IMG/VR virus record: IMGVR_UViG_3300032220_001536
Span: 1-27,226 of that record
Reading direction: 5' to 3' (one strand)
Length of the DNA: 27,226 bases
Source: a virus
Lineage: Duplodnaviria; Caudoviricetes
Position numbers and translations under genes: made by a program. The notes under the pieces are model-generated. The model was not told where the DNA came from and ran no database searches. It was given only the letters and a program-made list of their open reading frames with translations. The stretch's first letter is position 1, and each line of letters opens with the position of its first letter. Below are positions 1-15,306 of the stretch, one piece after another.

Positions 1-270
1 ATGACTGACCACATTCCCAACGATCTCAGCCACCTCAGCGATTCAGAGTTCCATTCACTCTGCCCACAAGGTGAACACGCGCCGGGACCAGAGCCTCTTT
101 CCCACGCCGCGCAGGCAGTACGTAAGGCGTATTACAGCACTGACGATTACCTAGCTGGTCCAGCACTTGCCGCCGCCCTGCGAGCTGCTGCGCCAATGAT
201 GGAGTGTGTGCAAGATCACCTAAAACTCCTCGCTATCGCCGACGAGCTGGAGGCATTGCCCAATGACTGA
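1..270 (+). CDS. Small hypothetical phage protein (AQAV...AAALRA...AIADEL paralog 1)
   Basis: 89 aa ORF; shares LSxxAQAVxxAY / AAALRAAA / LxAIADELE motifs with the ORFs at 1038 and 1392. Confidence 0.75.
   Translation: MTDHIPNDLSHLSDSEFHSLCPQGEHAPGPEPLSHAAQAVRKAYYSTDDYLAGPALAAALRAAAPMMECVQDHLKLLAIADELEALPND
247..268 (+). repeat. 22-bp gene-junction direct repeat, copy 1 (CTGGAGGCATTGCCCAATGACT)
   Basis: Identical to 1022-1043; contains a GGAGG Shine-Dalgarno and the ATG of the next gene. Confidence 0.9.
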
Positions 271-484
271 CTTTCGCGCCAAACTACAGCGATTGGTGAA
301 GGCGTATGACGAACATGGCGGGAAGTGGCCCGACCACCATGAACAGGCGCTTTTTCAAGCCGTTGAAGACGCCCGCGCCGCCCTGGCTGAGCAGCCGGTG
401 TGGCCGATGGATAAGCTCGACCGGCTGATTGCTCTGGACCGAGACGACCCCGCCAACGACCTGCCGGTGCCTGCCAATGTCTAA
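263..484 (+). CDS. Small hypothetical phage protein
   Basis: 73 aa; GGAGG upstream; start overlaps the previous gene's end. Confidence 0.7.
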   Translation: MTDFRAKLQRLVKAYDEHGGKWPDHHEQALFQAVEDARAALAEQPVWPMDKLDRLIALDRDDPANDLPVPANV

Positions 485-689
485 CCTTTCTCCCCAGCAA
501 CAAGAACTGTTGGAAAGATTTAAAGAATCCGACACTGTTTGTGCAAAAGCATATGCTATTTACAAACAAAGTTTTGACCCTGTTGGACTAAACTGGACAG
601 CATACCGCCAAGCACATCATGCTTCTGTAAAAAGAATGTCTGACTGCATGAAAGCAAAATTCAATCCTTACGATTATTTCAAACCATGA
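477..689 (+). CDS. Small hypothetical phage protein (MSNLSPQQQ...)
   Basis: ATG at 477 overlaps the end of the previous ORF and is preferred to the track start at 429. Confidence 0.65.
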   Translation: MSNLSPQQQELLERFKESDTVCAKAYAIYKQSFDPVGLNWTAYRQAHHASVKRMSDCMKAKFNPYDYFKP

Positions 690-1045
690 ACAACCAACAC
701 CCAATCACCCCACCACCAGATCTAACGGATAAATGGAACAACCTTCCATTGAGCACTCAAGAAATCTTTGTGATGGTTGCCCGCTGGGGCGCCGACCAGG
801 AGTTGAATGCTTGTTGTGAGTGGTTGCAAGATCCCGATCTAAATGTGGACACTTACAAACTTCGCGCCGCCCGCCGCCAGGGCAAGGTGCAGCTGATCGA
901 TGCCACCAGCTGGTTCAAGCCGCTGAGCTTGAAGGAGCAGGCGCTTGAAGCGTTGGAAACGCTAAACCAAGCGTGGATTATGCCAAAGGAACTGGAAGCT
1001 GTAATCGCCATCCGTCGCGCACTGGAGGCATTGCCCAATGACTAA
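686..1045 (+). CDS. Hypothetical phage protein (HPITPPP...WGADQEL...LKEQAL type)
   Basis: 119 aa; ATGA overlap with the previous gene; ends LEALPND exactly like ORF 1-270. Confidence 0.75.
   Translation: MNNQHPITPPPDLTDKWNNLPLSTQEIFVMVARWGADQELNACCEWLQDPDLNVDTYKLRAARRQGKVQLIDATSWFKPLSLKEQALEALETLNQAWIMPKELEAVIAIRRALEALPND
1022..1043 (+). repeat. 22-bp gene-junction direct repeat, copy 2
   Basis: Identical to 247-268. Confidence 0.9.
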
Positions 1046-1271
1046 CCTCTCCCCCACCGCTCAGGCAGTGTTGGATGCTTATAAAAACGCTCCAGACTTG
1101 ACGCTTGACGGTGATCCTGACGAAGTAGAACGGCGCCTTGGTTTAGCCGCCGCCTTTCGCGCTGTATCAGAGCATGGCGAGTTCGTGATACTTGATGATT
1201 CGGGAAACGGAGATTTCGTGGTGAAGGTGGATTTCCTTCGCGCCATCGCCAAAGAACTGGAGGGTGCCTGA
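1038..1271 (+). CDS. Small hypothetical phage protein (paralog 2)
   Basis: 77 aa: LSPTAQAVLDAY...LAAAFRAV...LRAIAKELEGA. Confidence 0.75.
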   Translation: MTNLSPTAQAVLDAYKNAPDLTLDGDPDEVERRLGLAAAFRAVSEHGEFVILDDSGNGDFVVKVDFLRAIAKELEGA

Positions 1272-1399
1272 TGGCTACGACAACGCTGCTAATCGGCACG
1301 GCCATTTACATGGGGTTGGGCATGGCTATAATCCCCGCGTGCATGTGGCTATCAAACAAAACCTGCAATGCCCTTGAAAGGAGATGGAACCATGACTAA
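1271..1399 (+). CDS. Small predicted membrane protein, 42 aa (not in ORF track)
   Basis: Manual translation MATTTLLIGTAIYMGLGMAIIPACMWLSNKTCNALERRWNHD; TGATG overlap upstream, GGAGG RBS, one hydrophobic stretch, overlaps the next start. Confidence 0.65.
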   Translation: MATTTLLIGTAIYMGLGMAIIPACMWLSNKTCNALERRWNHD

Positions 1400-1568
1400 C
1401 TTCTTCCCCGCCGCGCAGGCCGTCAAAGACGCCGCTGTTGACGCTTACTGGCTATTCCACCCCGCCCAAGTTGCCGCCGCCCTTCGCGCTGCTGCAAGTC
1501 AACTGACAAGCGCAAAGGCGAGTAACAAGCTTCGTGCCATCGCCGACGAGCTGGCAGGGCACGCATAA
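1392..1568 (+). CDS. Small hypothetical phage protein (paralog 3)
   Basis: ATG 1392 after AAGGAG; FPAAQAVKDA...VAAALRAAA...LRAIADELAG. Confidence 0.7.
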   Translation: MTNFFPAAQAVKDAAVDAYWLFHPAQVAAALRAAASQLTSAKASNKLRAIADELAGHA

Positions 1569-1684
1569 AAAACACACAGCAAATCAGCGCTAAGCCGAAC
1601 TGCTGCGTAAAACGTATTCTCAACCCTTGCTCGCCGTAACCCCGAGATCGCAGTCCTACCAGTCGCTCTGAGCGAGGCTGCTCC

Positions 1685-2011
1685 CTAACCAGCCTCTTCT
1701 TCCTCCTCGGTCATCCACTCATGGATCTCGCCCTCCCTGTGGGCACACCAGAAAGCCTGGTTCCGGTACCACTCGGACCAATCCGAGGCTCCCTTCCTCG
1801 AGTTGCAATCCAAGCAACAGGCCACGAGATTCCGAGGATGGGTCAATCCACCCTTAATCCTGGGCACCACGTGATCAAGCGTCGCGCACTTACCCAGCTC
1901 ATCCCCGCAATAGGCGCAAGCAGCATCCCAGCGCCTAAGAATGGCCTGCCGGAATCGCTCCTTGGCAGTTTTTTTAGGCACGAGATTAGATCCATCGATC
2001 TGATGATCCAC
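1685..2011 (-). CDS. HNH endonuclease
   Basis: CAYCG...TLDHVVPRIKGG...NLVACCLDCNSRKG: HNH motif with two CxxC pairs. Confidence 0.92.
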   Translation of the reverse strand: MDHQIDGSNLVPKKTAKERFRQAILRRWDAACAYCGDELGKCATLDHVVPRIKGGLTHPRNLVACCLDCNSRKGASDWSEWYRNQAFWCAHREGEIHEWMTEEEEEAG

Positions 2012-2099
2012 CGAGGACTAACAGCGCCTTAACTGCAGGGTATCGAGGACGCGTTACAAACAAAAATAATGATATATGGCTAAAAGCCTGTGCCCAAAC

Positions 2100-2214
2100 T
2101 CGATCTTTCTGCATCGTTAATCGATCTTTCTGCACAACCACTCGATATATCTGCCACAGCACTCGATCTTTCTGCATCAAAACTCGATCTTTCTACACCA
2201 TACAAAAAGATCGA
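2100..2214. repeat. Five phased direct repeats (core TCGATCTTTCTGCA, 21-bp period) plus one inverted partial copy
   Basis: Core starts at 2100, 2121, 2142 (variant TCGATATATCTGC), 2163 and 2184 (variant TCGATCTTTCTACA); AAAGATCGA at 2206-2214 is the reverse complement of the core start. Confidence 0.92.
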
Positions 2215-2259
2215 CAAAAGTCCATAAACTTGTACGTAAGGTCGCATTCCATAGTCGTC

Positions 2260-4092
2260 GTGTCCCAAACAACTTCCGAAGAATTCCGGAACGACGGAGC
2301 CCTAGTCAATGTTTTGACTGGAATGGGAATGTCTTCGAAGGATCGAACAGTCTTTACGGGTATTGCCACACCTTCTTTCCTTGGACAATCAGATCTTGAG
2401 GCTCTGTACTCCCACGGAATCCCCCGGCGTTACGTCGATGCCATCTCCGACGAGATCCTGAGGCACCACACCACCATCACCCTGGGTGGGGATGAAGATC
2501 CCAATGCCAACGACACCATCTCGGCATTTGAAGAATTCCTTAAGGACAGCCAGTTCCACCAGGCCCTAGCCGAAGTCATCAAGCTGCAGCGTCTGTACGG
2601 GGGAGCCGGCCTGGTCCTCCTCATCGACGACGGAGTGGAAGATCCAGCCGAGCCTGTTAATACAAACAACATCCGCGGCATCAACGGGTACATCCCTCTC
2701 TCCCGTTGGGAACTGCTCCCTGAGGACTTCACGATCACGGACTGGTCTAAGCCCACCCATTACCGGATCACCACCAGCCAAAAGATCACAGACGACCAGA
2801 GAGCCGCCTACGTCAACGTTCGGATCCACCACACCCGGGTGGCCCGCTTCGATGGCATGTACCTGCCCTGGCGTGTCCGAGTACGGAACACCGGCTGGGG
2901 TCAGTCCGTCCTCCAGCTGATTTGGGAGTCGTACAAGCGCTACGAGTCCGCCATGGCCGGCCTCGAGAGCATGACCTCCGATGCGGACCTCTTTGTTCAC
3001 AAGATGCCGGGACTGTTCCAACGGATTGCTGCAGGAAACGAAAGCGACCTGCGCAAGCGCCTCGAGGCCAACAACCTGAGCCGCTCGGTCTACGGCGGCA
3101 TGGTGGTCGATAAGGAAGAGGAAGTGGAGTTCCTCAACAGAGCCCTCGCCAACATTGCCAACGCCACCGATCCCTTCGTCAAGGATCTGCAGGCAGCCAC
3201 CGGCTGGCCCGCCTCGATCTTGATGGGTGATTCCCCTGGTGGTCTGGGCAAGGAAGGCCGCTTCGAAGAACGGGTCTGGGCTTCCCTGGTCGAGCAATGG
3301 CAGGAGGTCTACTGCCGCACCCCGATCACGGAGATCTTCACCTACATCCTGGCCAGCAAGCAGGGCCCCACCCGAGGACGCATCCCGCCCTCCTGGGCGA
3401 CCAGCTTCACCAGCGTGTTCACGCAGACGGATGAGGAGAAAGCCGCCTTACGTCTCCAAATAGCGCAGGTGGATTCCCAGTACATCAATCTCGGGGTGCT
3501 CAATGCCCTCGAGGTGCGTGAAGCCCGCTTTGGTGGCACCGAATACTCGATCGAGACAACGCTAAACCAAGCAGTCACTGACCAGCTGATCGCCAGTGCT
3601 GATGCCCAGTTCCAAACCCAGATGATGGGTTACCAAGCCCAGCAGGAGGCAGCCCTAAATCCTCCGGAACAGGCTGGTGTACTCCCACCAGGCGAGACCA
3701 CTGAAGAAGAGCAACCCCAGCCTGAAGAGAAGACCAAGCAGGACAACTTCGATTCCTACGAAGCCCAGGGCCTGCGCATCCGTGTTTCGCACGTAGTCGG
3801 TGACCTCAAAGCTGGGTATCTGGTAGGTCCTGATGGCCAACGCACCGATACCAGTGCCAACGCACCCTTGATGGTGTTTGGTCCCCACCGAGCTCGGAGC
3901 TACAAGCTCTACCGCGCTCATTTCGTCTGTGACGGAGCCTTGCTTGATGGCCCCTATGCCACAGGCTTCGCCTCACTCAAAGCAGCCAAAGCCGGGATTG
4001 CAACTTTCTTCCCTCGACAGAATGTGGCAGGACTGTCCCCTGTTCCCGAGGGCGAAGTTGAAGCTCTCCGTGCCGCCTGGGAGGTGTACTAA
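2260..4092 (+). CDS. Portal protein (DUF1073-like) with C-terminal extension
   Basis: Motifs DGALVNVLTGMG..KD, RLYGG, IHHTRV, GWGQSVL, AATGWPASILMGDSPGGL; position at the start of the head module. GTG 2260 preferred over TTG 2230. Confidence 0.88.
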   Translation: MSQTTSEEFRNDGALVNVLTGMGMSSKDRTVFTGIATPSFLGQSDLEALYSHGIPRRYVDAISDEILRHHTTITLGGDEDPNANDTISAFEEFLKDSQFHQALAEVIKLQRLYGGAGLVLLIDDGVEDPAEPVNTNNIRGINGYIPLSRWELLPEDFTITDWSKPTHYRITTSQKITDDQRAAYVNVRIHHTRVARFDGMYLPWRVRVRNTGWGQSVLQLIWESYKRYESAMAGLESMTSDADLFVHKMPGLFQRIAAGNESDLRKRLEANNLSRSVYGGMVVDKEEEVEFLNRALANIANATDPFVKDLQAATGWPASILMGDSPGGLGKEGRFEERVWASLVEQWQEVYCRTPITEIFTYILASKQGPTRGRIPPSWATSFTSVFTQTDEEKAALRLQIAQVDSQYINLGVLNALEVREARFGGTEYSIETTLNQAVTDQLIASADAQFQTQMMGYQAQQEAALNPPEQAGVLPPGETTEEEQPQPEEKTKQDNFDSYEAQGLRIRVSHVVGDLKAGYLVGPDGQRTDTSANAPLMVFGPHRARSYKLYRAHFVCDGALLDGPYATGFASLKAAKAGIATFFPRQNVAGLSPVPEGEVEALRAAWEVY

Positions 4093-7000
4093 TGGACAAC
4101 CAACAGCAAGACACCACCAGAGCAGCCGCTTACCTTGCAGCTAAAGAGCGCCTGGACCTGCGGGGTGCCAAGTCCACCCGCACGGGCAAGACCCGTAACA
4201 CCATCAACTGCACAGCAGGCAACAAGCGTTGCGGAAACCGGTGCATCCCTAACAACTGGGACTGCCGGCTTGAGGGAAAAGGAACCAATTCCGATCTAAG
4301 TGCCCACTCTCAGGATTTGCTTGCGGGTACCGCCAAGCTGCAGCGAGGCTCGAGGGATCTGATCAAAGGTCTCAGCACAGCAAACCCAGAGCTGATTAAC
4401 CGAGGACGTAACTCGTTAGTACTAGGGGCTGTCAAAATTGCTCCAGGTGACAAGCTCGACAAGAAAAAGCAACTCAAACAGGACATTCTTCGCAACACAC
4501 GTCCTGTAGTTACGGTTCTAACCCTAGGTGTCTTGGGCCTAGCTGCTCACCGGGGGCTAAAGAAAACTTGGCCTGGCTACGCCAATGGAATGGGCCGCAA
4601 ATTAGATGACGCTGTCAAGCATGGGTACAACAGTGTCCTAGACCGCACACCCATTGTTGGGGCTAGGCGGGCAGCCATCCGAGCCACTGGCTTTGGTGCG
4701 GTTCAACAAGGTAGCAGGCAACTCCTAAAGGGCAACGAACTAGCCCGCAAGACCAGTGCAATGGCTAATAGCAATCCACTGAAGCCTGGGCTTGCAGCAA
4801 CAGTGGGCATCAGTGCTGACACCAGGGGTTCGTCATTGATAAACAAGTACGACGAAATGGTTAGGGGTGCCAAGGGATCAGTCAATAGAGATACATGGAT
4901 ACAAAAGGGACGTCAGCTTGTCTACGATGCAAAAGACAAGAAGGGCAATAGTGTTTACTCAACAGATGCAAGTGCTTATTTATTGACAAAACAATTCGGG
5001 CTTGACCCCAGGGGCATGATCGGAGATCGAGTCCGCTCAAGCTACACAACTACAGCACGCAGAGAGATTCTACAGATAAGACTGGGGAATCATTTCAACG
5101 AGCTATCAACAGCTATGAGACGGGACATGGAAGTCCGCGGCATGGATGTCAAACAGTACACCGAAAGCGTGCTGAAGCCTCAAATTGCAACCTCCACAAT
5201 GTGGATACCCGTTGCCGGTGACCGCAAAGCAGCGTCTCAACAGTCGGAGCAATTCCTAACAAGACTAATCACCAAAAATACAATTTCAGACCACAAAGAC
5301 CACGCCAATGAAATCATTAAAAAGACGGAAACTCATTTCAACACAGTATTTAACGACCTTTCTCTGAACTTAAATCGTAATGCGGCCAGTTCTGAGTCTC
5401 CAGCGGATGAAGCAACACTGGGATTTGCTCGTTTTCTGTCTACAAACTCACGCGGACCTGCCGTACGAGTCGTTAACAACGAACATGCAGACCTTTACCT
5501 CGAGGGCGTTTTTCGCCGACGAGTTAATGGACAAAACGATCCAATCGTTATCTCACGTCCGACTGCCGTTCGTGTAGCAAAAGCAGTAGCAGGCCACGCT
5601 ACGAATCCAACTCCAGAACAGGCACTTCAAATTCTTAAGGTTCAAGGTGGTATCAACGCAACTTATGCCGCATCGACTGGCCGTGTTCGCGTCCAGCAAA
5701 GCCTGACGGAAAGAGCACGCCAGCTGATGGCAACCGGAAACCTGAGCTACGAAGCTGCCCTCCGTCAGGCACGCAAAGAGGCCACTGCTCGCGGTGATTC
5801 CGACGACAGCGGAATTCCCCCACGGGTTGAAGCTTACCTTGAAGCTCGCACCGATCTCAAGGAGAACCCCCGCCTGGGAAAGACCTGTGGGGAGTCCCAT
5901 ATCCCCAAATCGCATAAGTGCACGAAGGGGATAGGTGCTTCTACGCAGAGTGCGGTCTCCAAGCATCAAGCTGCAAAGATCGCCGCCATTTCGGGTGGTG
6001 TCCTTCTGGCAGGTGCTCTCCTCACCGGCCTCGGTGTCAACCAGGCCAAGGTAAACAGATACCGATCGAACGTAAGTGAGTCCGCCATCAAGGCCGAAGT
6101 TCTTGCCAAAACAATGATGGACGAGATGCGTCAATCCGCGGCTCAGCGTCTAGGCAAAGACGTCAAAGACGTCACCGGCTTTGAGGCGTCAGTCTACAAC
6201 TTCAAGGACTCAGGACATGACCGCGGCTTTGGTAGCAACGACAAGGCCCCGGCCTACTTTGGCCAAACCCCGAACAGCCGAGGTGGCGTCGTGATGCTCA
6301 GCTACGCCGACGACAACCGATTTACCCGCCAGGGTCAGGGCAGCTACAAGATGGCCAAAGGTGGAGCCTTTCAAGAGATCTGGGGTGAGCACGATGTCCT
6401 GCCCTTTGCTAACAGTATTTCGCAGCCAAGCCGGCGCAGCCCAGACGACATGACCATGCAAGCCCGAGAACGGGTGGTCAAGGCTGCTGGACCGTTAGGA
6501 GGTGCAGTCAAGGGAGCTGTTAATACGAAAGAAGCTTTCTCAAACTTTGATTACTTAAGCGAAAATATCAACCGCCGGGGTCACAATCCGGATGCAATTA
6601 GGGCGGCTGCCTTTGTCGTGGCCCAACGCCGCCTCACCGGCAAGCCAATCAACTTGATGTCGTATAGCAACGGTGGAAACGTTGCCAGCGAGACCCTGGC
6701 CATCCTAAAAGACATGGGCTATAGGGACGTCAAAGTAATCAATATCGCTGGTCCCACCTTCGGTGTTTTCTCCCATAGTCGTGACCAGATGCGGACTTGG
6801 GTTAGCCGGGGCGACGAGTTCTGGTCGATGGGACGCAGTGCTGCATTTCAGGGTAGCAACATCCAGTTCCTCCGCAACTCCAACATTCCTCACGGACTAA
6901 CGGCCAAAACCGATCCCAACAATCGCGAGAACGGGGCCAATTGGAAGGCCAACTTCAAGGCAAAAAACAGCTACTTACTGGACGAGCAGCTGCAACGGGA

Positions 7001-7322
7001 GGCCCACCAGTTCCTGACCGTGGACAACCGCCGTTCTAGAGAGCTTGCTGATGAATTCATCTGGCGTTCAGCAGAGCGCAAGCCATTTGAGGGTGACCTA
7101 GACACGCTGTTGGGTGCGCGTGCCACCTCCGTTGCTGCCACCTACCGTCAAAAGCGTAAGGCCAACCTCGAAGCCGCCGACAATTGGCTACGCGACGAGC
7201 TTGAGAAAAGCATGATTGACAAGTGGTACGGAGGCTACAACGCCAAGACTGTGAAGAACCGCCAGAAAGAAATACAGCGAGACCTTCAAGAGCAAATCCA
7301 TGGTAAAAAAAGCGCCGCGTAG
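4092..7322 (+). CDS. Large two-module putative head cargo protein (ORF A); C-terminal alpha/beta-hydrolase-like domain
   Basis: 1076 aa; two CG-x3-I-x5-C motifs (4230-4265, 5886-5921), each followed by a hydrophobic segment; NLMSYSNGGNVA nucleophile-elbow-like motif. The ORF is solid; its function is inferred. Confidence 0.7.
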   Translation: MDNQQQDTTRAAAYLAAKERLDLRGAKSTRTGKTRNTINCTAGNKRCGNRCIPNNWDCRLEGKGTNSDLSAHSQDLLAGTAKLQRGSRDLIKGLSTANPELINRGRNSLVLGAVKIAPGDKLDKKKQLKQDILRNTRPVVTVLTLGVLGLAAHRGLKKTWPGYANGMGRKLDDAVKHGYNSVLDRTPIVGARRAAIRATGFGAVQQGSRQLLKGNELARKTSAMANSNPLKPGLAATVGISADTRGSSLINKYDEMVRGAKGSVNRDTWIQKGRQLVYDAKDKKGNSVYSTDASAYLLTKQFGLDPRGMIGDRVRSSYTTTARREILQIRLGNHFNELSTAMRRDMEVRGMDVKQYTESVLKPQIATSTMWIPVAGDRKAASQQSEQFLTRLITKNTISDHKDHANEIIKKTETHFNTVFNDLSLNLNRNAASSESPADEATLGFARFLSTNSRGPAVRVVNNEHADLYLEGVFRRRVNGQNDPIVISRPTAVRVAKAVAGHATNPTPEQALQILKVQGGINATYAASTGRVRVQQSLTERARQLMATGNLSYEAALRQARKEATARGDSDDSGIPPRVEAYLEARTDLKENPRLGKTCGESHIPKSHKCTKGIGASTQSAVSKHQAAKIAAISGGVLLAGALLTGLGVNQAKVNRYRSNVSESAIKAEVLAKTMMDEMRQSAAQRLGKDVKDVTGFEASVYNFKDSGHDRGFGSNDKAPAYFGQTPNSRGGVVMLSYADDNRFTRQGQGSYKMAKGGAFQEIWGEHDVLPFANSISQPSRRSPDDMTMQARERVVKAAGPLGGAVKGAVNTKEAFSNFDYLSENINRRGHNPDAIRAAAFVVAQRRLTGKPINLMSYSNGGNVASETLAILKDMGYRDVKVINIAGPTFGVFSHSRDQMRTWVSRGDEFWSMGRSAAFQGSNIQFLRNSNIPHGLTAKTDPNNRENGANWKANFKAKNSYLLDEQLQREAHQFLTVDNRRSRELADEFIWRSAERKPFEGDLDTLLGARATSVAATYRQKRKANLEAADNWLRDELEKSMIDKWYGGYNAKTVKNRQKEIQRDLQEQIHGKKSAA

Positions 7323-8206
7323 TGGAGCTAATTGAGCAGTACAACCAGATCCTCCGCACCACCGAGGACGGAACCATGCGGCGGCTCAACCGCGTCCTCG
7401 ATCAGTCCTTCAACCACATCGTGCGCCGCACGCGCATCCAAATGAAGGCTGGGTACAGCGATGCCCAGCAACGCAACCTGGCCCTGCTTCAAGAATTCCG
7501 GAATCTCGTCCCTGCCTACCGCCCGGACCGGGTCGATGCCTATGACCGGCTGCTTCGCACCTTGTTAGGAGACGCAAGCCGCTCGGGCCTCGATGTGGCC
7601 AGCCAACTGACCGAGCAAATGACCCCGGGCAAGCCCCGGATCGACGTATCCATCCCCCTGGATGCCACGGTCTCCGCCGCCGCCCAAGCCAAGGGCTACC
7701 TGCGCAAACACGGTGAGACCTTCGCCACCAAAGCAGCTGAGGTCGTAGCCAAAGGCATTGCCGAAGGTCGTGCCACCGACTCAATGGTCCAGGACATGCG
7801 CCTACGCCTGGGTGTGGTCAAGTCCAGAGCCGATGTCATCGTCCGCACCGAAACCCTGCGGGCCTACAACGACGCCTCGAACAACTACTACGCCAACCAG
7901 GGCATCGATCTGGTGATGTACTACGCCACTGCTGATGATCGCAGCTGCCCTTATTGCGCACCGAGGGCGGGCAAGATCTACAAACGCCAAGAGATCAAGG
8001 TCCCTTTGCACCCCCGGTGCCGGTGCTTCCTATCCCCCTGGGACCCCGACATTGCCCAGATGGACCCGGACTACACAGCCAAACGGGCCAAACACAGCAA
8101 AGAAGTCGCCCAAGCCATCGGCAAAAACGGCACCACCGAGGCCGTAAACCTCAGTCGTGCCGCTGTGTTCGAGCAGGTTGCCCCGACTCCTGTTAGTCCT
8201 ACTTGA
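7322..8206 (+). CDS. Head morphogenesis protein, Mu gpF / SPP1 gp7 family (short MuF, no toxin extension)
   Basis: RADVIVRTETLRAYN, DDRSCPYC, PLHPRCRC motifs. Confidence 0.9.
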   Translation: MELIEQYNQILRTTEDGTMRRLNRVLDQSFNHIVRRTRIQMKAGYSDAQQRNLALLQEFRNLVPAYRPDRVDAYDRLLRTLLGDASRSGLDVASQLTEQMTPGKPRIDVSIPLDATVSAAAQAKGYLRKHGETFATKAAEVVAKGIAEGRATDSMVQDMRLRLGVVKSRADVIVRTETLRAYNDASNNYYANQGIDLVMYYATADDRSCPYCAPRAGKIYKRQEIKVPLHPRCRCFLSPWDPDIAQMDPDYTAKRAKHSKEVAQAIGKNGTTEAVNLSRAAVFEQVAPTPVSPT

Positions 8207-8381
8207 AGCCAGGCAGGCGTTGGAGCAGTTTGATCAAGGGCTTCATGGCCTCGAGCTGGGCGTCGATGGCCTCGAGCAGACTCTCAATCCTCTTCAGGCG
8301 TGCAATCGCATCGTCCGCCCGAGTGATCAGGGGAGCGGCTGCCTCTTGGACCTCAGAACCTAGAAAGCTACCGAGTCCCAT
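8199..8381 (-). CDS. Small coiled-coil-like hypothetical protein
   Basis: 60 aa amphipathic helix; ATG overlaps the TGA of the upstream minus-strand gene (TGATG). Confidence 0.65.
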   Translation of the reverse strand: MGLGSFLGSEVQEAAAPLITRADDAIARLKRIESLLEAIDAQLEAMKPLIKLLQRLPGFK

Positions 8382-8521
8382 CACTTCTTAGGAAAAAGGA
8401 CTTTAAGGACGCTAAAAATGAGTTGAAGCCAAGAGTTAGCTTTCAGCGAAGGCGTAATCGCCATAATCTCTGATCCAGCTGCCACAACGACAGCAATAAC
8501 AGCAACAGTTTGAACGCTCAT
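8381..8521 (-). CDS. Small membrane protein, holin-like, 46 aa (not in ORF track)
   Basis: Manual translation MSVQTVAVIAVVVAAGSEIMAITPSLKANSWLQLIFSVLKVLFPKK: two hydrophobic/amphipathic segments and a basic C-terminus. The holin role is inferred. Confidence 0.65.
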   Translation of the reverse strand: MSVQTVAVIAVVVAAGSEIMAITPSLKANSWLQLIFSVLKVLFPKK

Positions 8522-8617
8522 AGTGAAAGTGTCACTGTTACCAGCTTATGGACCCTGATGTAAAACACCATCGCTAAGCTGGCCTATACAGAGTGGGCCA
8601 AAGGCGCCCTCTTCGCC

Positions 8618-9667
8618 ATGGCACGCCCCACCAAACAGCGCCCTCCTGTAAAGCAGGAAGCAGAAGAGATGGAAGCCCAGGAAATGGGTGAGACTTCCGA
8701 AGAAGAGACCCGTGAAGGCACCGAGGACGGAGCCTCCATGAAGAACAGCCGGAAGCGCAGCCCCAAAGGTGCCAAAAACACCAAGGCTCCGATGGACGCT
8801 GAGTGCGGCATCTGCAAATCTGGCAAGTCTTGCTCTTGTAAGGCCAAGAAAGACGGGGGATGCGGTAGCTACGGCAAGCGTGGCGATGCCCTGACCCCTC
8901 AGGAATATCTCGCTGCTTGCGATCTGGGTATCCAAGACCGCAGCCGCACCTACATTCGCGCCCGCCTCGACACCGCCATGAACCTCACACCTTCCACTGT
9001 CCGCGCTGACCTCAAGTGCGGGAACGGCTCCATCTCCCAGGGTGAGAAGTGCACCAAAGGCACGGCGCAGACCGTTGATCCGAGAGCCACCGCAAAGCGA
9101 GAATTTAACGACATTCATCGTAATCGCAAAGCTCACGCTGCATTCCACAATGCAAAGGCGAACAGAAAAGGTATTGGCAACAAGGTAAAGCTTGCAGGTG
9201 AAGTTGCAGCTCGTGTGGGTGCACAAGTCGCACTTGGTGTTGGCACAAATCAAGTAGTCAAAGGTATTATGAGTGGAAATATAGGTGAAGCAAGCCGAGG
9301 TTTTCGCAATATGCACCTAGGTCAAGCTGCCGTGCAGATGGCTAATGCTGGCAAAGCTAGCCGCATGGGCAATAAAGGACTCGCGAAAGAATTTATTAAG
9401 AGTGCAGGGCGTAATGCGGGAGTTGGCGTCGGCCAAGAAGCTGCTATTGGAGCCTATGCAGGTTTCAAACGCACAGGGGGAATGGCCGGTATCAATCGCC
9501 GTACTCGTAGTGCCTATCAATCAGCCCGAGCACGTGCCACCGGCATGCGCTCCACACCACATGGCACTGGATGGGCCTCTAGCGCCTACGACCGTCCCTT
9601 GCCCGGTCGTCGTGACTCGGTCTACGCCGCCGGATTTAGCCCTGACTACGAGCAACTCGCAATCTGA
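8618..9667 (+). CDS. Putative head cargo protein (ORF B): acidic/Cys-rich N-terminus plus leader-Cys module
   Basis: Internal MNLTPSTVRADLKCGNGSISQGEKC (from 8978); tail RRDSVYAAGF. Confidence 0.75.
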   Translation: MARPTKQRPPVKQEAEEMEAQEMGETSEEETREGTEDGASMKNSRKRSPKGAKNTKAPMDAECGICKSGKSCSCKAKKDGGCGSYGKRGDALTPQEYLAACDLGIQDRSRTYIRARLDTAMNLTPSTVRADLKCGNGSISQGEKCTKGTAQTVDPRATAKREFNDIHRNRKAHAAFHNAKANRKGIGNKVKLAGEVAARVGAQVALGVGTNQVVKGIMSGNIGEASRGFRNMHLGQAAVQMANAGKASRMGNKGLAKEFIKSAGRNAGVGVGQEAAIGAYAGFKRTGGMAGINRRTRSAYQSARARATGMRSTPHGTGWASSAYDRPLPGRRDSVYAAGFSPDYEQLAI

Positions 9668-9670
9668 GGC

Positions 9671-10447
9671 ATGGCGCTTACCCCTGCCACCATTCGCGCT
9701 GACCTCAAATGTGGGAAAGGGTCCATTTCCGAGGGCGAGAAGTGCTCAAAGGGCGCTGCCACTAAGCGTGCACCTCGAGCTGGCACCACAGAGCGACTGC
9801 TCAAGCGCGCCGGGACTATCGGTTTTATGGGGGGCCTCGGTTACACCGCAGTTGCACTAGCCAAAGGCAAAGCCAACCATGCAGTAGGCGGATTGACTGG
9901 TGTTATGGCTTCAACATCCGCTTTCAACACAGGTGAGGCAATGATGTATGAGCGCAAAGGTCAGAAAGCCAAAGCTAAAACAGCGCGAATAAAGGCCGGT
10001 ATAGGTGCTGGCTATGCACTAGCGGGTATAGGTCTGCTGGGGTACGAAGCCATATCAACCCGTAACTACATAAATAATGTTGCAAACGGCACATACACGC
10101 GAGAAACCGCAAGGAAAACCCAAGCAGCAGGAGAAAACTACAAAAATACCTATCAGGGCCGTTATGGTGGCGCAAGCGGAGCCGGTTACCGAGGTGCTCG
10201 TCCTCCCCGCCGCGGCTACCAAGGAAATCCCTTCCAAGATCTGGGTGTGTCCGCTTCGGCATCTACTGCGGAACTGAAGAAAGCCTGGAAAGCAAAGATG
10301 ATGCAGCATCATCCTGACCGCGGGGGTGACCCCGAAGTGGCCAAAAAGATCAACGAGGCATATCAAGCCATTCTGCGATCTAAAGGCATCAAGGACTCCA
10401 TCTACGCCGACGGCTTCGACATTGACTGGGACGCCCTCGCGCTGTAA
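9671..10447 (+). CDS. Putative head cargo protein (ORF C) with C-terminal DnaJ J-domain
   Basis: Leader MALTPATIRADLKCGKGSISEGEKC; hydrophobic segments; NPFQDLGV...LKKAW...HHPDRGG...INEAY J-domain; tail IKDSIYADGF. Confidence 0.85.
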   Translation: MALTPATIRADLKCGKGSISEGEKCSKGAATKRAPRAGTTERLLKRAGTIGFMGGLGYTAVALAKGKANHAVGGLTGVMASTSAFNTGEAMMYERKGQKAKAKTARIKAGIGAGYALAGIGLLGYEAISTRNYINNVANGTYTRETARKTQAAGENYKNTYQGRYGGASGAGYRGARPPRRGYQGNPFQDLGVSASASTAELKKAWKAKMMQHHPDRGGDPEVAKKINEAYQAILRSKGIKDSIYADGFDIDWDALAL

Positions 10448-10450
10448 GCC

Positions 10451-10966
10451 ATGAACCTCACCCCTGCTACCGTCCGTGCCGATGCCTTTATCGGTAACAA
10501 GAAGCTTAACTGCGGCCCTGGTTCCAAACCATGTGGCAACGCCTGTATCCCAAAAGACCACAAGTGTCGAGCGTCCTGGAACAAACCAGTCAAGGTTGCC
10601 GCCACAGTAGGTGCAGTGGCTGGTGTTGGATTAGTTGCAACTGCCTTCCTGCATAAACGCCCTGGTATGCGTAGCGCTGCACGAGCCTCTATCGAGCCAC
10701 TTGCTCAAGCTGGTTTTGCCGCAGGCAACGTTGCACGAGGCAACTTTGCTGGTGCTGCAAAGAACGCAGCCAATGTTGCTATGACCGGCAGAGAATTACC
10801 TAAGAATCTCAAGTCTCTAGCTAAAGGCTACAGCACAGACCTGAAGAACTTAGTCAACCGAGGTCGTAATGCTTCGTTCAAAGCTCGTCATCATCGTCAA
10901 GCAAAAGGTGGCCGAGTACCAGGCTTAAACTATGACTCAGTCTGGGCCATAGGTTTTGAACCGTGA
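10451..10966 (+). CDS. Putative head cargo protein (ORF D), basic, with a membrane segment
   Basis: Leader MNLTPATVRAD; CGPGSKPCGNACIPKDHKC; VAATVGAVAGVGLVATAFL; tail YDSVWAIGF. Confidence 0.75.
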   Translation: MNLTPATVRADAFIGNKKLNCGPGSKPCGNACIPKDHKCRASWNKPVKVAATVGAVAGVGLVATAFLHKRPGMRSAARASIEPLAQAGFAAGNVARGNFAGAAKNAANVAMTGRELPKNLKSLAKGYSTDLKNLVNRGRNASFKARHHRQAKGGRVPGLNYDSVWAIGFEP

Positions 10967-11349
10967 ACCTCACTCCCGCCTCCCTGCGCCTTGACACCGA
11001 GGACGGCAAGAAGTACACCAAGGTCGTCACCAACCCCGAAACCGGCCGTAAAAACAAGGTCCGTTATGGCGCCAAGGGCTATCGCATCGCACCTGGCACT
11101 GACAAGGGCGATCGCTACTGCGCCCGCTCCTTCGGCGACATGAAATCCGAGGGCTACAACTGCTCCGGCGGGGAACGCAACACCCCGCTTTGCCTTTCCC
11201 GGGCCAAATGGGCATGCTCTGGCAAGACCAGCCGCAAATCTTCTGCTCTAGCTCGCAAGGACAACTTCATCCAGCACTACGCCCCGGTTCAGCTTCAACC
11301 ACCCAATAAGCGCGACAGCGCCTGGATGCCGGGAAAGTCTCCGGCCTAG
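10963..11349 (+). CDS. Putative head cargo protein (ORF E), basic and Cys-containing; frameshift donor
   Basis: Leader (M)NLTPASLRLD; tail KRDSAWMPG containing the slippery heptamer. Confidence 0.75.
   Translation: MNLTPASLRLDTEDGKKYTKVVTNPETGRKNKVRYGAKGYRIAPGTDKGDRYCARSFGDMKSEGYNCSGGERNTPLCLSRAKWACSGKTSRKSSALARKDNFIQHYAPVQLQPPNKRDSAWMPGKSPA
11331..11337 (+). other. Predicted -1 programmed frameshift site G GGA AAG
   Basis: X XXY YYZ phase is correct in ORF E (CCG GGA AAG); same heptamer as lambda G-T; the -1 frame is open to 12185. Confidence 0.8.
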
Positions 11350-12185
11350 CTCGAGCCGACGCCCCCGAGGTCGCTCGCGGTAAGCCATGTGGTGCCTCTC
11401 ACATCCCGAAGCAGCACAAGTGTGGTAAGCACGCGGCTTCTCAGGCTTCGGCCAAGCAAAAACGCCTAACTCGACTGGCTGTAGCGGGTGGATTAACCGT
11501 CACTGCAGCGGTGGGCTTAGCCCTAATCGCTCGAGGCAAAGCCACTCCCCAAGTCCGCATGATGCCTGGGGTGACTGCCGCCCCGGTACCCCTAACACCC
11601 CGGAGCGTAAGGCTCTTACCTGCTCGAAGCTCAGCGCCAACCGAGGACGAACTAGAGATCCTTGAGCAATACATCAACAGCAGCCGCGTCTTGAATCGCA
11701 GCCTGCGCAGCGGGAAGCTTGTCCCTGGTGTGGAAGCCCGCGTCGAGAAAATCGACACTTGGATGCGTAACGCAAGCCCCACCGAGGGCCGGTATTACCG
11801 CGGCATAGCCTCAGAAAAAGATGCTGAATTCTTCCGCACTGCTTCCGTTGGTGACACCTACAACGACCGTGGATACGGCAGTTTCTCCAGCGTTTACCTC
11901 ACGGCCAGACAGTTCGCTAAAGAGACAGCAGCGGGCGCAGAGCGTGTAGTCGTACGCACACGAGCACCTTTTTACGCCATGCCAACCGAGGCCATCGACA
12001 CCATGGCCCGACACCGTGGAACCTTTGATGTTTCAGCCGCTGGCGAGAACGAGTTCCTCGCTCCACGTGGTGCAAGCTATCGCGTGACCAAGATCCGCAC
12101 CGGTATCCCAACTGAAGGGCGCAACCGTCTGCTTCGCAAGTACACCCTGGTGGATCTGGAGTACACAGGGGTCAACAATAGTTAG
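11337..12185 (+). CDS. ADP-ribosyltransferase module (VIP2/C2/Alt-like, R-S-E class), probably expressed as a frameshift fusion to ORF E
   Basis: YINSS..LNRSLR, YYRGI, GYGSFSS, GENEFLAPRGASYRV. The frame is open from 11310; a Cys module (11388-11423) lies upstream of the first GTG (11511). Confidence 0.85.
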   Translation, partial: VSGLARADAPEVARGKPCGASHIPKQHKCGKHAASQASAKQKRLTRLAVAGGLTVTAAVGLALIARGKATPQVRMMPGVTAAPVPLTPRSVRLLPARSSAPTEDELEILEQYINSSRVLNRSLRSGKLVPGVEARVEKIDTWMRNASPTEGRYYRGIASEKDAEFFRTASVGDTYNDRGYGSFSSVYLTARQFAKETAAGAERVVVRTRAPFYAMPTEAIDTMARHRGTFDVSAAGENEFLAPRGASYRVTKIRTGIPTEGRNRLLRKYTLVDLEYTGVNNS

Positions 12186-12397
12186 ATCCCTTTGATCAAA
12201 TCTTGCAGCGTAAGCCCATAAAGCTCGCTCAAACTGAACAACTTTGTAAGCGATACCTCCACTTCTCCCTTTTCCAACCTCGAATACGCCGCCTGACTCA
12301 CACAAAGTACCTCTGCAACCTCCATCTGTGTGAGTCCAGCATGCTCCCTTAGGCCCCGCATGCGACGACACAACATCAATTGCCTGTGAATCGCCAC
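12182..12397 (-). CDS. XRE-family helix-turn-helix regulator
   Basis: LREHAGLTQMEVAEVLCVSQAAYSRLEKG; start uncertain (12397, 12376 or 12361). Confidence 0.88.
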   Translation of the reverse strand: MAIHRQLMLCRRMRGLREHAGLTQMEVAEVLCVSQAAYSRLEKGEVEVSLTKLFSLSELYGLTLQDLIKGI

Positions 12398-12459: not shown

Positions 12460-13752
12460 ATGGAAACATCTGTTTCTCGCTACGATTTCGCGCCTATCAC
12501 GGGTAGCGAAGCCACCGAGGAGGGTTACCTCCGCGTGTGGTGTCGTGCGGCGCGTACGGGCACTCAGCTCTATCGGCGCGCAGATGGTTCACAAGTTCGG
12601 GAATACCGGCCTCCTGAAGAGGTCAGCAATCCCGACGCTCTCTCCACGTTCGGTATGAAAGCCGCTACGTGGGGGCACCCACCCGTCCTTCTCGACGCAG
12701 CAAACACAAAGCAGTACCAAATTGGCTACTCAGGTAGCCAAGTTCGGTACAACGATGGCTTTGTCGAAGTTGCACTCGTCGTCACAGACGCCGATGCCAT
12801 CGAGAAGATCAAGCGCAAAGATGCCACCGAGGTGTCCGCCGGCTACAAAGTCGACTTCGACCCCACCCCCGGGATCACCCCCGAGGGCGAGGAGTACGCC
12901 GGTGTCCAACGCAACATCCGGGTAAACCACATCGCCATCGTTCCTCGTGGCCGGGCCGGTCCCGAGGTACGCCTTCTGCTCGATCGCATGGATGCAGCCG
13001 ACGCTGTTTCCTGCCCCGAGTACGAGTTGGCACTCCAGCCCAGTCAACCTGCATCTCCCGTTATGGCCACCGTCAAACTGGACGGCCTGGAGATCGATCT
13101 GCCCGCAGAAGCAGCTACGGCGGTCCAGTCCTTCGCCCGGGACATGGAGCGCCAACTCAAAGCTGTTTCCACTGAGCGCGACGAGCTTTCTTCCAAGCTC
13201 GACGCCCAGCAAGAGGAGATCGATGCCCTCGCCTTTGAGAAAGAAACCGCCGAAGGTCGTGCCGACGCTCTCGAAGAGCGCCTGGCCGAATTCGACAACG
13301 GTTCTGCTCGCATCGACACAGTCGAACTCGACCAACTGGTCGCTGATCGTCTGTCCACCCTGCAAAACCTGGCTCCCGCCTTTGCCGACGACTTCAAATT
13401 CGACGGAATTGACGACGCCAGCCTCTACAACCAGGCTTTCGAAAACCTGACCGGCACCGCTCCCCGCGAGGACGCTGAGCCTTCCTACATCCAAGGCGTA
13501 GTCGACGGCATCCTTGCCGCTCGTGCTGACTCCGAGGACGACGAAGAAGGTGAAGATGACGCCCCCGAGGGTGAGGGCGAAGTCGCCGAAGAAGGCGAAG
13601 CCAAAGAGGACGCCGCTGACGCTCGTTCGGACAGCTCTGCTGCCCTACGCAACGCGCTGAAAGGCGTCGGCAGTGCAAACGCCACCCCCGAGAGCGTTTA
13701 TCGCTCGAAGATGGCTGATGCCTGGAAGCGTCCCCTGACCGCCACTAAGTAA
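12460..13752 (+). CDS. DUF2213-type putative prohead protease with C-terminal scaffold-like coiled coil
   Basis: EGYLRV..RAARTGTQLY, EYRPPEEV, GHP, EVSAGY, QRNIRVNHIAIVPRGRAG; acidic coiled-coil second half; lies just before the decoration and capsid genes. Confidence 0.85.
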   Translation: METSVSRYDFAPITGSEATEEGYLRVWCRAARTGTQLYRRADGSQVREYRPPEEVSNPDALSTFGMKAATWGHPPVLLDAANTKQYQIGYSGSQVRYNDGFVEVALVVTDADAIEKIKRKDATEVSAGYKVDFDPTPGITPEGEEYAGVQRNIRVNHIAIVPRGRAGPEVRLLLDRMDAADAVSCPEYELALQPSQPASPVMATVKLDGLEIDLPAEAATAVQSFARDMERQLKAVSTERDELSSKLDAQQEEIDALAFEKETAEGRADALEERLAEFDNGSARIDTVELDQLVADRLSTLQNLAPAFADDFKFDGIDDASLYNQAFENLTGTAPREDAEPSYIQGVVDGILAARADSEDDEEGEDDAPEGEGEVAEEGEAKEDAADARSDSSAALRNALKGVGSANATPESVYRSKMADAWKRPLTATK

Positions 13753-14388: not shown

Positions 14389-15306
14389 ATGACTACTGAA
14401 ATCCGTAACGACGAAGTCGGCGTCTTTCTCGCCAGGGAGCTCGAGACAATCCTGTCTCGGACCTTTGAAGTCGAGTACACCGACATTAAGTACAGCACCC
14501 TAATCCCGATCTCCACCGAGGTCGGCCCCGGCGCTGACTCCTACACCTTCCGAGTCTTCGACAAGCAAGGCTCGATGAAAGTGATCGGGGACAAGGCATC
14601 TGACCTGCCCCGCGCTGACGTGCTCCGTAAGGAAGTGACCTACCCGGTCCGTTCCTTGGGTGCCTCCTTCGCCTATACCATCCAGGAAACCCGTGCCGCC
14701 GCCATGGTGCCCGGCATGAACCTGGAGCAACGTCGCGCTAACGCAGTGCGTCGTGCCTATGAGGAGAAGGTTCAGGAGATCGCTTTCTACGGCGATGCCG
14801 CCTCCGGCATGAAGGGCTTCTTCAACAACGATCAGGTCGACAAAACCGTTCCTGATAAGTGGTTCGACACCGCAAGTGTCACCACCGACGAAATGCTGGC
14901 TCTTCTGAACGAGGCACCTACCCGCCTGGTGCAGAACTCCAACATGAAGGAGATGCCCAACACGATGCTGGTGCCCTACAACGTGTACCGCATCATCTCC
15001 ACCACCCCCCGTTCGACAACCTCGGACACCACGGTGATGGAATTCTTCCTGCGCACCAACCCGATGATTAGCTCGATCGAGCCGATCAACGAACTGGAAG
15101 CCAGCAAGTCCGGCGGCGCTTTGTCGAAGGACCGGATCCTGGTTTATGACCGCAGCCCTGACAAGCTGCAACTCCAAGTGCCCCAGCCCCTGGAGTTCCT
15201 GCCCCCCGTGCGCCAAAACCTCGAGTTCTCGGTGGCTGCCCACGCACGTATCGGAGGTCTTGCGCTCTATTACCCCAAGAGCGCCATGGTGCTCGAAAAG
15301 GCATAA
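14389..15306 (+). CDS. Major capsid protein (DUF2184/HK97-fold type)
   Basis: FLARELE, DLPRAD, YTIQE.RAA, IAFYGD..GMKGFFN motifs; GGAG RBS; position. Confidence 0.9.
   Translation: MTTEIRNDEVGVFLARELETILSRTFEVEYTDIKYSTLIPISTEVGPGADSYTFRVFDKQGSMKVIGDKASDLPRADVLRKEVTYPVRSLGASFAYTIQETRAAAMVPGMNLEQRRANAVRRAYEEKVQEIAFYGDAASGMKGFFNNDQVDKTVPDKWFDTASVTTDEMLALLNEAPTRLVQNSNMKEMPNTMLVPYNVYRIISTTPRSTTSDTTVMEFFLRTNPMISSIEPINELEASKSGGALSKDRILVYDRSPDKLQLQVPQPLEFLPPVRQNLEFSVAAHARIGGLALYYPKSAMVLEKA

Follow-up and report, generated by a model that had tools for sequence, protein, structure and literature searches.

The internal proteins and Alt of phage T4, which carry a targeting sequence cut by gp21, and the ejection proteins of phages phiKZ and SPN3US are packaged, processed and ejected, an ADP-ribosyltransferase (ART) being among them, and are cut after the acidic residue of a short x-x-acid site. 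Packaged and injected multi-domain effectors encoded beside portal-terminase genes have also been proposed as polyvalent proteins, which combine several effector-type domains such as ART, kinase-like and peptidase domains (Iyer et al. 2017, PMC5512222), and the MuF toxins tie a variable toxic or enzymatic domain to the minor head protein MuF beside the portal gene (Jamet et al. 2017, PMC5576092). The array of open reading frames (ORFs) considered here occupies positions 4092-12185 of a 27,226-base virus record (IMG/VR IMGVR_UViG_3300032220_001536; estimated completeness 39%), the whole of which is called the window. It lies between the gene for the portal protein and that for a prohead protease of family DUF2213, on the + strand, which also holds siphophage structural genes, including head-tail genes and a 1619-residue tape-measure protein; the nearest deposited phage, judged by capsid protein, is Synechococcus phage S-CBS4 (52.6% identity). 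The array is made of seven payload units in six reading frames, and six of these units are headed by a common module that consists of an R-x-D tripeptide, a cysteine (Cys) hairpin and, usually, a hydrophobic helix. The reading that we favour, and hold to be slightly on the probable side, is that the array proteins are packed into the virion, cut at R-x-D by the DUF2213 protease and ejected, with their enzymes becoming anchored in the membrane of the host.

The portal gene and the parts of the array are the following (lengths in amino acids, aa):

2230..4092, + strand: portal protein, 620 aa (PF06381, E = 1.1e-57; phrog_146)
4092..7322, + strand: ORF A, 1076 aa, two fused cassettes, A1 and A2
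ORF A, cassette A1: RLD 4149-4157; Cys hairpin 4230-4265; helix 4503-4559; conserved all-alpha payload
ORF A, junction: RGD 5790-5798; RTD 5847-5855
ORF A, cassette A2: Cys hairpin 5886-5921; helix 5979-6035; alpha/beta-hydrolase-like payload with Ser859 (6666-6668) in YSNGG
7322..8206, + strand: short MuF-type minor head protein, 294 aa, no C-terminal toxin (PF04233, E = 1.2e-12)
8618..9667, + strand: ORF B, 349 aa; homologues in 53 of 53 related loci
ORF B, first parts: charged, Cys-rich N-terminus; RGD 8879-8887; RLD 8963-8971; internal leader 8978-9010
ORF B, further parts: Cys hairpin 9017-9052; weak hydrophobic stretch 9185-9241; tail RRDSVYAAGF from 9608
9671..10447, + strand: ORF C, 258 aa; J-domain (PF00226, E = 5.1e-9), HPD at aa 214-216
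ORF C, parts: leader 9671-9703; Cys hairpin 9710-9745; hydrophobic stretches 9809-9865 and 9989-10054; J-domain 10232-10372; tail from 10394
10451..10966, + strand: ORF D, 171 aa; 69 homologues
ORF D, parts: leader 10451-10483; four-Cys hairpin 10532-10567; helix 10595-10651; helical hairpin; tail from 10934
10963..11349, + strand: ORF E, 128 aa, GTG start; leader 10963-10995; Cys-rich payload; tail KRDSAWMPGK
11331..11337, + strand: slippery heptamer G GGA AAG (in CC GGG AAA G), predicted site of a -1 shift that joins ORF E to the ART frame
11310..12185, + strand: open frame F, 291 codons; RAD 11352-11360; Cys hairpin 11388-11423; helix 11475-11531
11634-12134, + strand: ADP-ribosyltransferase in frame F (PF03496, E = 4.4e-7; 29.9 bits against a cut-off of 23.4)

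A six-frame scan of the window finds the Cys motif CG-x3-I-x5-C exactly six times, the number claimed in the original prediction (at 4230, 5886, 9017, 9710, 10532 and 11388, all on the + strand); at the DNA level the pattern has six forward matches, no reverse match and none for a reversed-pattern control. R-x-D precedes each of the six. A hydrophobic helix, which had been put forward as a regular part of the plan, is clear after five of them, weak in ORF B (Kyte-Doolittle 1.11) and lacking in ORF E. All the sites at which leaders of the form M[NA]LTP[AS][TS][VIL]R[AL]D had been claimed do hold one: those at 8978, 9671 and 10451 conform, the first of them lying inside ORF B (120 aa upstream of this leader are conserved in relatives), and the one at 10963 is a GTG-started variant. 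ORF A has AYLxA...RxD at 4128 and 5832 instead of this form, and the open frame at 11310-12185 contains GLARAD and leads into an ADP-ribosyltransferase, as had been proposed. Tails of the form DS[VIA][YW] stand at 9614, 10394, 10934 and 11314, that is, in ORFs B-E as described. ORF E, contrary to the grammar ascribed to all the ORFs, has leader and tail without a Cys motif or hydrophobic helix of its own. The MuF protein is indeed short, with no further domain after its PF04233 match, and payloads do stand in genes of their own.

A search with ORF C and with a DNA pattern for KCGxGxISxGEKC yielded 163 stretches of viral contigs, which reduce, on removal of overlaps, to 53 distinct loci of at least 4 kb, all of one lineage; with the window these make the 54 loci referred to below. 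Their capsid proteins are 80-93% and their portals 50-77% identical to those of the window. Over the 54 loci the gene strand has 265 copies of the Cys motif, against a single copy on the opposite strand; R-x-D lies at most 30 aa upstream of 260 of the 265, and a hydrophobic 19-mer (Kyte-Doolittle of at least 1.2) follows 222 of them within 110 aa, at a median of 22. Leaders number 91 on the gene strand (53 at an ORF start, 38 internal) against 2 on the other, and 84 of 89 tails end at most 20 aa from a stop. In an alignment of 35 modules the C, G, I and C of the motif do not vary, and conservation of R and of D is 90% or more.

What the modules precede is far less constant. The 267 payload segments of the 54 loci fall into 57 clusters at 70% mutual coverage, 18 of which have a Pfam match: kinase-like (RIO1/APH/Kdo/Pkinase), LRAT, DnaJ, DUF5872 (carried by the relatives of ORF E), Lipase_3/cutinase, Gly-zipper, MuF and ART, the last found in the window only. 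The 30 loci that include both portal and protease have 30 different payload orders, within a portal-protease interval of 4.8-11.5 kb; the idea of swappable payloads is thus borne out, all 30 differing despite the near relationship of their capsids. The array is one of shared grammar with exchangeable payloads, subject to mosaic turnover. The A1 payload is present in 46 of the 54 loci and takes first position in every complete locus; in 4 of the 54, MuF is fused C-terminally behind the last ORF A cassette.

With the polyvalent proteins the array shares linkage to portal-terminase genes and, in the cultured phage considered below and only there, packaging; it also shares the union of two or more effector-type domains in one polypeptide, as in ORF A with its two cassettes, although most payloads of the window are separate genes. 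It differs from them in that each domain is preceded by a fixed module and that the chain is often split into genes by stops and by a -1 frameshift within the junctions. The Pfam LPD families of polyvalent proteins are absent from the Pfam matches of the window, of its relatives and of the scanned representatives and further lineages described below, and the words 'transmembrane' and 'cysteine' have no occurrence in the main text of PMC5512222. Among named systems the MuF toxins come closest. Unlike them, the array has a short MuF, without C-terminal toxin fusion (the PF04233 match ends near residue 237 of 294), and its payloads are separate genes or lie N-terminal of MuF; the module goes unmentioned in the accessible part of PMC5576092. 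The T4 and phiKZ types have [LI]-x-E or [SAG]-x-E as their site, whereas R-x-D is predicted here, for a protease of family DUF2213, with sites that flank every unit on both sides and a membrane helix in each unit; the [LIV]-R-x-D of the cargo resembles the I-R-x-D of the capsid protein, and R-x-D is enriched in the scaffold, cleavage being a prediction. In the literature searched, no account was found of a module made of R-x-D, Cys hairpin and helix, nor of a split-gene array of this kind or its frameshift; subscription journals and supplements could hold one. The claim that this is not a described system stands, then, for the module and not for the general idea of packaged polyvalent effectors, which is in print (PMC5512222). 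We regard the array as a probable set of virion-packaged effectors of polyvalent type with a module that was not found described.

Two of the payload identities proposed for the window are secure by sequence criteria. The ART has the R-S-E motifs (in the open frame, YRG is at residue 163, SFS at 191, ENE at 246) and passes the Pfam score cut-off; the J-domain of ORF C has its HPD and scores 36.5 bits with PF00226 against a cut-off of 27.8. The third, a Ser-hydrolase-like domain in A2, has no direct Pfam match and gains a transitive link: a profile of 13 A2 homologues matches the YSNGG-elbow stretches of other module proteins that are labelled Lipase_3, DUF676 or abhydrolase. Searches of PDB sequences with the A2 payload and with the ART gave no match. 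ORF C as a whole is built like a membrane-anchored J-protein: hydrophobic segments stand at the N-terminal end, the middle is rich in Gly, and the J-domain with its HPD is C-terminal. It resembles Escherichia coli DjlA in this, and differs from it in being phage-encoded and in carrying the leader, Cys hairpin and tail of the array. AlphaFold2 models of moderate quality, made with alignments, present residues 1-565 of ORF A as all-helical, with the Cys motif as a beta-hairpin (predicted local distance difference test, pLDDT, 71.7), and ORF D (pLDDT 72.7) as a hairpin (strands 25-28 and 31-34), a long membrane helix, a helical hairpin (helices at 41-67, 71-95 and 99-147 in all) and a disordered tail; a search of the ESM Atlas with ORF D gave no match. 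The hairpin is closed by the invariant first and last Cys, and its C/H/H/C and four-Cys variants suggest metal binding or a disulfide.

The constant first place of A1 and the all-helical models of A1 and ORF D, each with a membrane helix, also accord with a different proposal, which we consider unlikely: that the conserved members A1, B and D are mainly structural ejection proteins forming a conduit through the envelope, as do P22 gp7/gp16/gp20 and T7 gp14-16, and that the enzymes are occasional passengers. Such conduits are described in the abstract of PMC8402733. Structural neighbours in BFVD include tape-measure and internal virion proteins, at E values of 0.015 and above that are not evidence by themselves. 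Most cassettes, however, bear enzyme domains typical of effectors, and a content that differs in 30 of 30 loci is unusual for a conduit; in siphophages, moreover, that function is ascribed to the tape-measure protein.

Virion association can be judged from a cultured phage. Compared by tblastn with 50,697 phage records, ORF D has one weak match (E = 0.4), in Aphanizomenon phage vB_AphaS-CL131, and the locus so found holds seven motifs, all on the gene strand, in ORF044 (226 aa), ORF047 (330 aa, with GHSAG) and ORF048 (1811 aa, five modules). R-x-D precedes the motifs of ORF044 and ORF047 and four of the five modules of ORF048, the other following K-K-D-S; the hydrophobic stretch is clear after four of the five. 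Table S5 of the CL131 study (PMC6293099) lists 23 proteins from CsCl-purified particles. ORF048 has the highest score of the 23, with 105 peptides, 175 peptide-spectrum matches and 54.6% coverage, and ORF047 and ORF044 are represented by 14 and 9 peptides, respectively (same table); the authors label all three hypothetical. Module proteins are accordingly present in CL131 virions, as had been predicted for such proteins, and this published finding in a distant relative is the sole experimental support for packaging.

The same particles bear on whether anything is delivered at all. With hydrophobic helices so regular a companion of the motif, and with ejection itself a prediction, the proteins might be thought of as late membrane proteins of the producing cell, acting at the site of assembly, in the timing of lysis or in superinfection exclusion; their abundance in purified CL131 virions and the location of their genes within head or virion modules in every phage context examined make this highly improbable. 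As a separate observation, HNHPNLGWDKSD, which follows the module in CL131 ORF044 (L176, 5758-6438), looks like a RadC/JAB-type metal site on a reading of the motif only; RadC is among the domains listed for polyvalent proteins (PMC5512222).

The R-x-D tripeptide recurs in proteins of the head, whose genes (including one for a cement protein, which with the capsid gene comes after the DUF2213 gene) follow the array:

12460..13752, + strand: DUF2213 prohead protease with a C-terminal scaffold-like part (PF09979, E = 6.9e-42); 9 R-x-D sites
14389..15306, + strand: major capsid protein (PF09950, E = 8.1e-57); N-terminus MTTEIRND, with R-N-D at 14404-14412

Prohead proteases of other families, such as T4 gp21 and phiKZ gp175, cut after an acidic residue in short motifs; a literature search on the cleavage specificity of DUF2213 found nothing. 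The nine R-x-D tripeptides of the window's protease-scaffold protein compare with 2.7 expected, and each is kept in 24-28 of 28 relatives, across which R.D and K.D are enriched about 3-fold, R.E is at 0.4-fold and K.E does not occur; when only the scaffold part is shuffled, the count seen in it is reached in 148 of 20,000 trials. The protease protein of S-CBS4 has 7 (1.9 expected), and those of four more lineages have 8-11 (2-3.4 expected). The capsid N-terminus is M-x(3-7)-[IL]-R-x-D in all eight lineages examined, and the cargo leader, M-x-L-T-P-x-x-[LIV]-R-x-D, closely resembles it; farther out in this capsid family the picture varies from phage to phage, FP_Brigit having an N-terminal R-Y-D and SA91KD no such site. 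Within fused proteins an invariant R-G-D and an invariant R-x-D flank a spacer of about 0-17 residues, and the tails, [RK]-[RK]-D-S, have the form of several scaffold sites. The notion that leader and tail peptides serve as an address is not supported by this arrangement, since a spacer of such variable length between invariant Asp sites fits sites of cutting better than a docking peptide. From the place of R-x-D at the start of the capsid protein, and from its enrichment in the scaffold part, we infer that cleavage would fall after its Asp, with the DUF2213 prohead protease as the likely cutter.

The junction between ORF E and the ART frame involves a predicted frameshift. Frame F, open from 11310, has no ATG, GTG or TTG before 11511, which falls inside the hydrophobic helix. 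ORF E ends ATG CCG GGA AAG TCT CCG GCC TAG, its stop lying three codons after the heptamer, and a -1 slip on G GGA AAG would continue it as V-S-G-L-A-R-A-D-A..., followed by the Cys motif, the helix and the ART. The heptamer is of the X XXY YYZ type and in frame, a -1 ORF overlaps, and a 0-frame stop is nearby. CC GGG AAA G is present in 19 of the 54 loci (a twentieth match is spurious), in all of which the 0 frame encodes RRD-x-x-L-[TM]-P-G-K, with a stop 0-4 codons later, and the -1 frame encodes V-x-x-L-x-R-x-D-A-P; nine of the 19 have no ATG, GTG or TTG in the -1 frame ahead of the Cys motif. The heptamer is constant while its flanks vary, and the E-F fusion junction that it would create has the same form as the junctions within fused proteins. 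We read this conserved slip site as a predicted programmed -1 frameshift joining ORF E to the ART frame. The lambda gpG/gpGT frameshift uses the same heptamer, G GGA AAG, for the same -1 shift, also with the 0-frame stop just behind it; it joins tail assembly chaperones, whereas the one proposed here joins two cargo cassettes of a head module. Two loci are singular in this region. In L003 (10804-10860) the 0-frame ORF before the slip site is just 18 codons long (VSLTPASLRRDGALTPGK), and the 606-codon kinase frame behind it seems to rely almost wholly on frameshifting or on an unusual start; in L074 (about 9995, oriented) the -1 frame lacks the usual GKPCG hairpin after R-x-D and has its first Cys motif later, and is a variant or decayed cassette.

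The module extends well beyond this lineage. Of 1.84 billion representative proteins compared with a profile built from the 35 modules, 724 match at E of 1e-3 or below, 290 at 1e-10 and 27 at 1e-30, with up to seven modules per protein; one protein of 2677 aa has LRAT, His_Phos_1, NUDIX and PARP-like domains. The 149 listed representatives contain 338 strict motifs, and R-x-D stands upstream of 312. Sixty of 150 listed representatives were scanned against Pfam, with matches to LRAT/NlpC-P60, several kinase-like families, DnaJ, His_Phos_1, NUDIX, PARP/ART, zincin-like and Lipase_3/DUF676/cutinase/Tle3-like domains; 23 of the 60 have no match at E of 1e-3 or below. One profile match, P0195, was rejected as a false positive consisting of chitin-binding CBM_14 repeats. 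A looser DNA pattern, for CGxxCIPK, led to 92 further distinct loci, 32 with at least one module of full grammar; the other 60, with none, are counted as chance matches. Five further lineages have the gene order terminase, portal, array, MuF, array, DUF2213, cement, capsid, and in one of these the array ends in an ART, as it does in the window. The proposed link to a head module with DUF1073-type portal, DUF2213 protease and DUF2184-type capsid holds in the clade of the window, and the gene order is the same in these five. The placement between portal and protease does not hold for the CL131-like phages, where the array adjoins the tape-measure gene. S-CBS4 has no motif and no array, and a CL131-specific pattern found no match among viral contigs.

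In cellular genomes the module is too rare to be a common prophage trait: the DNA pattern, run over 185,579 species genomes, gave four stretches in three contigs, one of the contigs false, and the module profile matched 1 of 401 genomes sampled from the phylum of the sole module-bearing metagenome-assembled genome (MAG). In that MAG, of Thermosynechococcus, a DUF2213 gene lies 6 kb upstream on one module contig; a match in a MAG of Myxococcota was rejected as Cys repeats. This distribution bears on a relationship that the neighbouring MuF gene, the variable payloads and the ART would otherwise call to mind, namely that the array encodes polymorphic toxins for competition between bacteria, in the manner of the MuF toxins of temperate phages. 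So small a presence (1 of 401 genomes of the phylum, and two real contigs among the species genomes), a MuF without C-terminal toxin in the window, and ORF listings in which no conserved small immunity-like gene was noticed downstream of the cassettes, though no dedicated search was made, leave that proposal with very little probability.

The reading favoured here, in which the array proteins are packaged, cut and ejected, can be set out as a series of steps. Units would be made as separate, fused or frameshift-joined chains and would enter the prohead, being likely packed in the virion; the prohead protease would trim them at both flanking R-x-D sites; they would leave the particle with the DNA at infection; and the hydrophobic helix would insert in the host membrane, where the enzymes would act. 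The stops and the frameshift sit in junctions of what is elsewhere one polyprotein and may thereby set the amount of each unit. The payloads that would act on the host are the lipase-like hydrolase, the DjlA-like membrane J-protein and the ART, joined in relatives by kinases and by LRAT/NlpC enzymes.

Several observations weigh against this reading. The relatives on which the conservation counts are based are close kin, so the counts are not independent. In one CL131-like contig the protease protein is not enriched for R-x-D (3 sites, 2.0 expected), and E. coli phage SA91KD, of the same capsid family, has no N-terminal R-x-D. For the slip site, RNA that would stimulate frameshifting is unsupported (z = -0.76), and a small conserved hairpin 22 nucleotides downstream has compensatory change in 0 of 11 pairs. 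Foldseek comparison of the A1 model with PDB and BFVD gave no match at E of 1e-3 or below. The Thermosynechococcus MAG has a 43-kb contig with a four-module LRAT and DnaJ protein, and its DUF2213 matches are only on other contigs. A kinase, ART or J-domain must face the cytoplasm, a constraint that any membrane topology of the units would have to satisfy. Finally, CL131 is a distant relative, recognised by a weak match and then by the motif, and its proteome was searched for fully tryptic peptides only (PMC6293099), so that these data are mute on cuts at R-x-D; its array, moreover, adjoins the tape-measure gene, which leaves room for a location in the tail.

That the proteins travel in or with the tail, in association with the tape measure, rather than in the head is nevertheless improbable. 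The array does stand directly upstream of a giant tape-measure gene in CL131 and in two AT-rich CL131-like contigs (there after DUF2213, capsid and connector genes, and before a gene that is tape-measure-like), and CL131 ORF047 is annotated as similar to a tape-measure domain protein. In the clade of the window and the five further lineages, however, it lies between portal, MuF and prohead protease, it is fused to MuF in 4 of the 54 loci, and ORF048, at about 200 kDa by annotated size, would be hard to fit in a lumen filled by the tape measure.

A more far-reaching version of the favoured reading, which we advance tentatively and regard as somewhat less than probable, is that the module of R-x-D, Cys beta-hairpin and helix is portable, and would make of any enzyme a packaged, protease-released, membrane-anchored effector in DUF2213 phages, carried in a polyprotein like beads on a string whose junction stops and frameshift set dosage; a co-delivered J-protein would recruit host DnaK at the site of entry. 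If the favoured reading is true, there is a sequence rule for finding proteins that phages inject together with their DNA, which are difficult to identify and familiar chiefly from a handful of model phages; no fewer than 724 protein clusters are already picked out by this rule, and many of these lack a known domain. It would also predict the cut specificity of the widespread and unstudied DUF2213 family of prohead proteases, provide natural exchangeable cargo slots in a phage virion, and add a conserved programmed frameshift outside the tail chaperone genes. The mix of payloads (lipases, LRAT/NlpC enzymes, kinases, ARTs and a membrane J-protein) would then point to an early, membrane-centred takeover of cyanobacterial hosts.

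Some features of the surrounding DNA may be added. The gap of 411 bases between MuF and ORF B (8207-8617) has no + strand ORF of 100 aa or more and no Rfam match; in the relatives inspected MuF and ORF B are close together. Scans of the whole window for Rfam families and tRNA gave no match. Beyond the array lies one gene on the opposite strand, directly upstream of the DUF2213 gene:

12182..12397, - strand: XRE-type helix-turn-helix regulator (PHROG transcription regulators, E about 1e-9), divergent from the protease gene

A regulator is found in the same position in S-CBS4 (gp021) and CL131 (gp037), and because it is conserved in position, the head operon may own a regulated promoter apart from the portal-array unit. 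Upstream of the portal gene (window positions 1-2230) the longest ORF is at most 119 aa; in relatives (L002, L003 and L005) and in five other lineages the large terminase gene is directly upstream of the portal. The start of ORF A overlaps the portal stop, and the portal itself has, at residues of about 500-620, a C-terminal extension of 120 residues past its Pfam match, with an end, QNVAGLS.VP...A.R.....Y, that is conserved in relatives. The C-terminal extension of the S-CBS4 portal (L001, about 6786-6850 of the locus) holds TMDEAGLYLSRDLEHQRGD, which is close to the N-terminus of that phage's own capsid protein, MSEFRMDEAGLFLERQLE, and resembles a duplicated capsid N-arm or a protease site.

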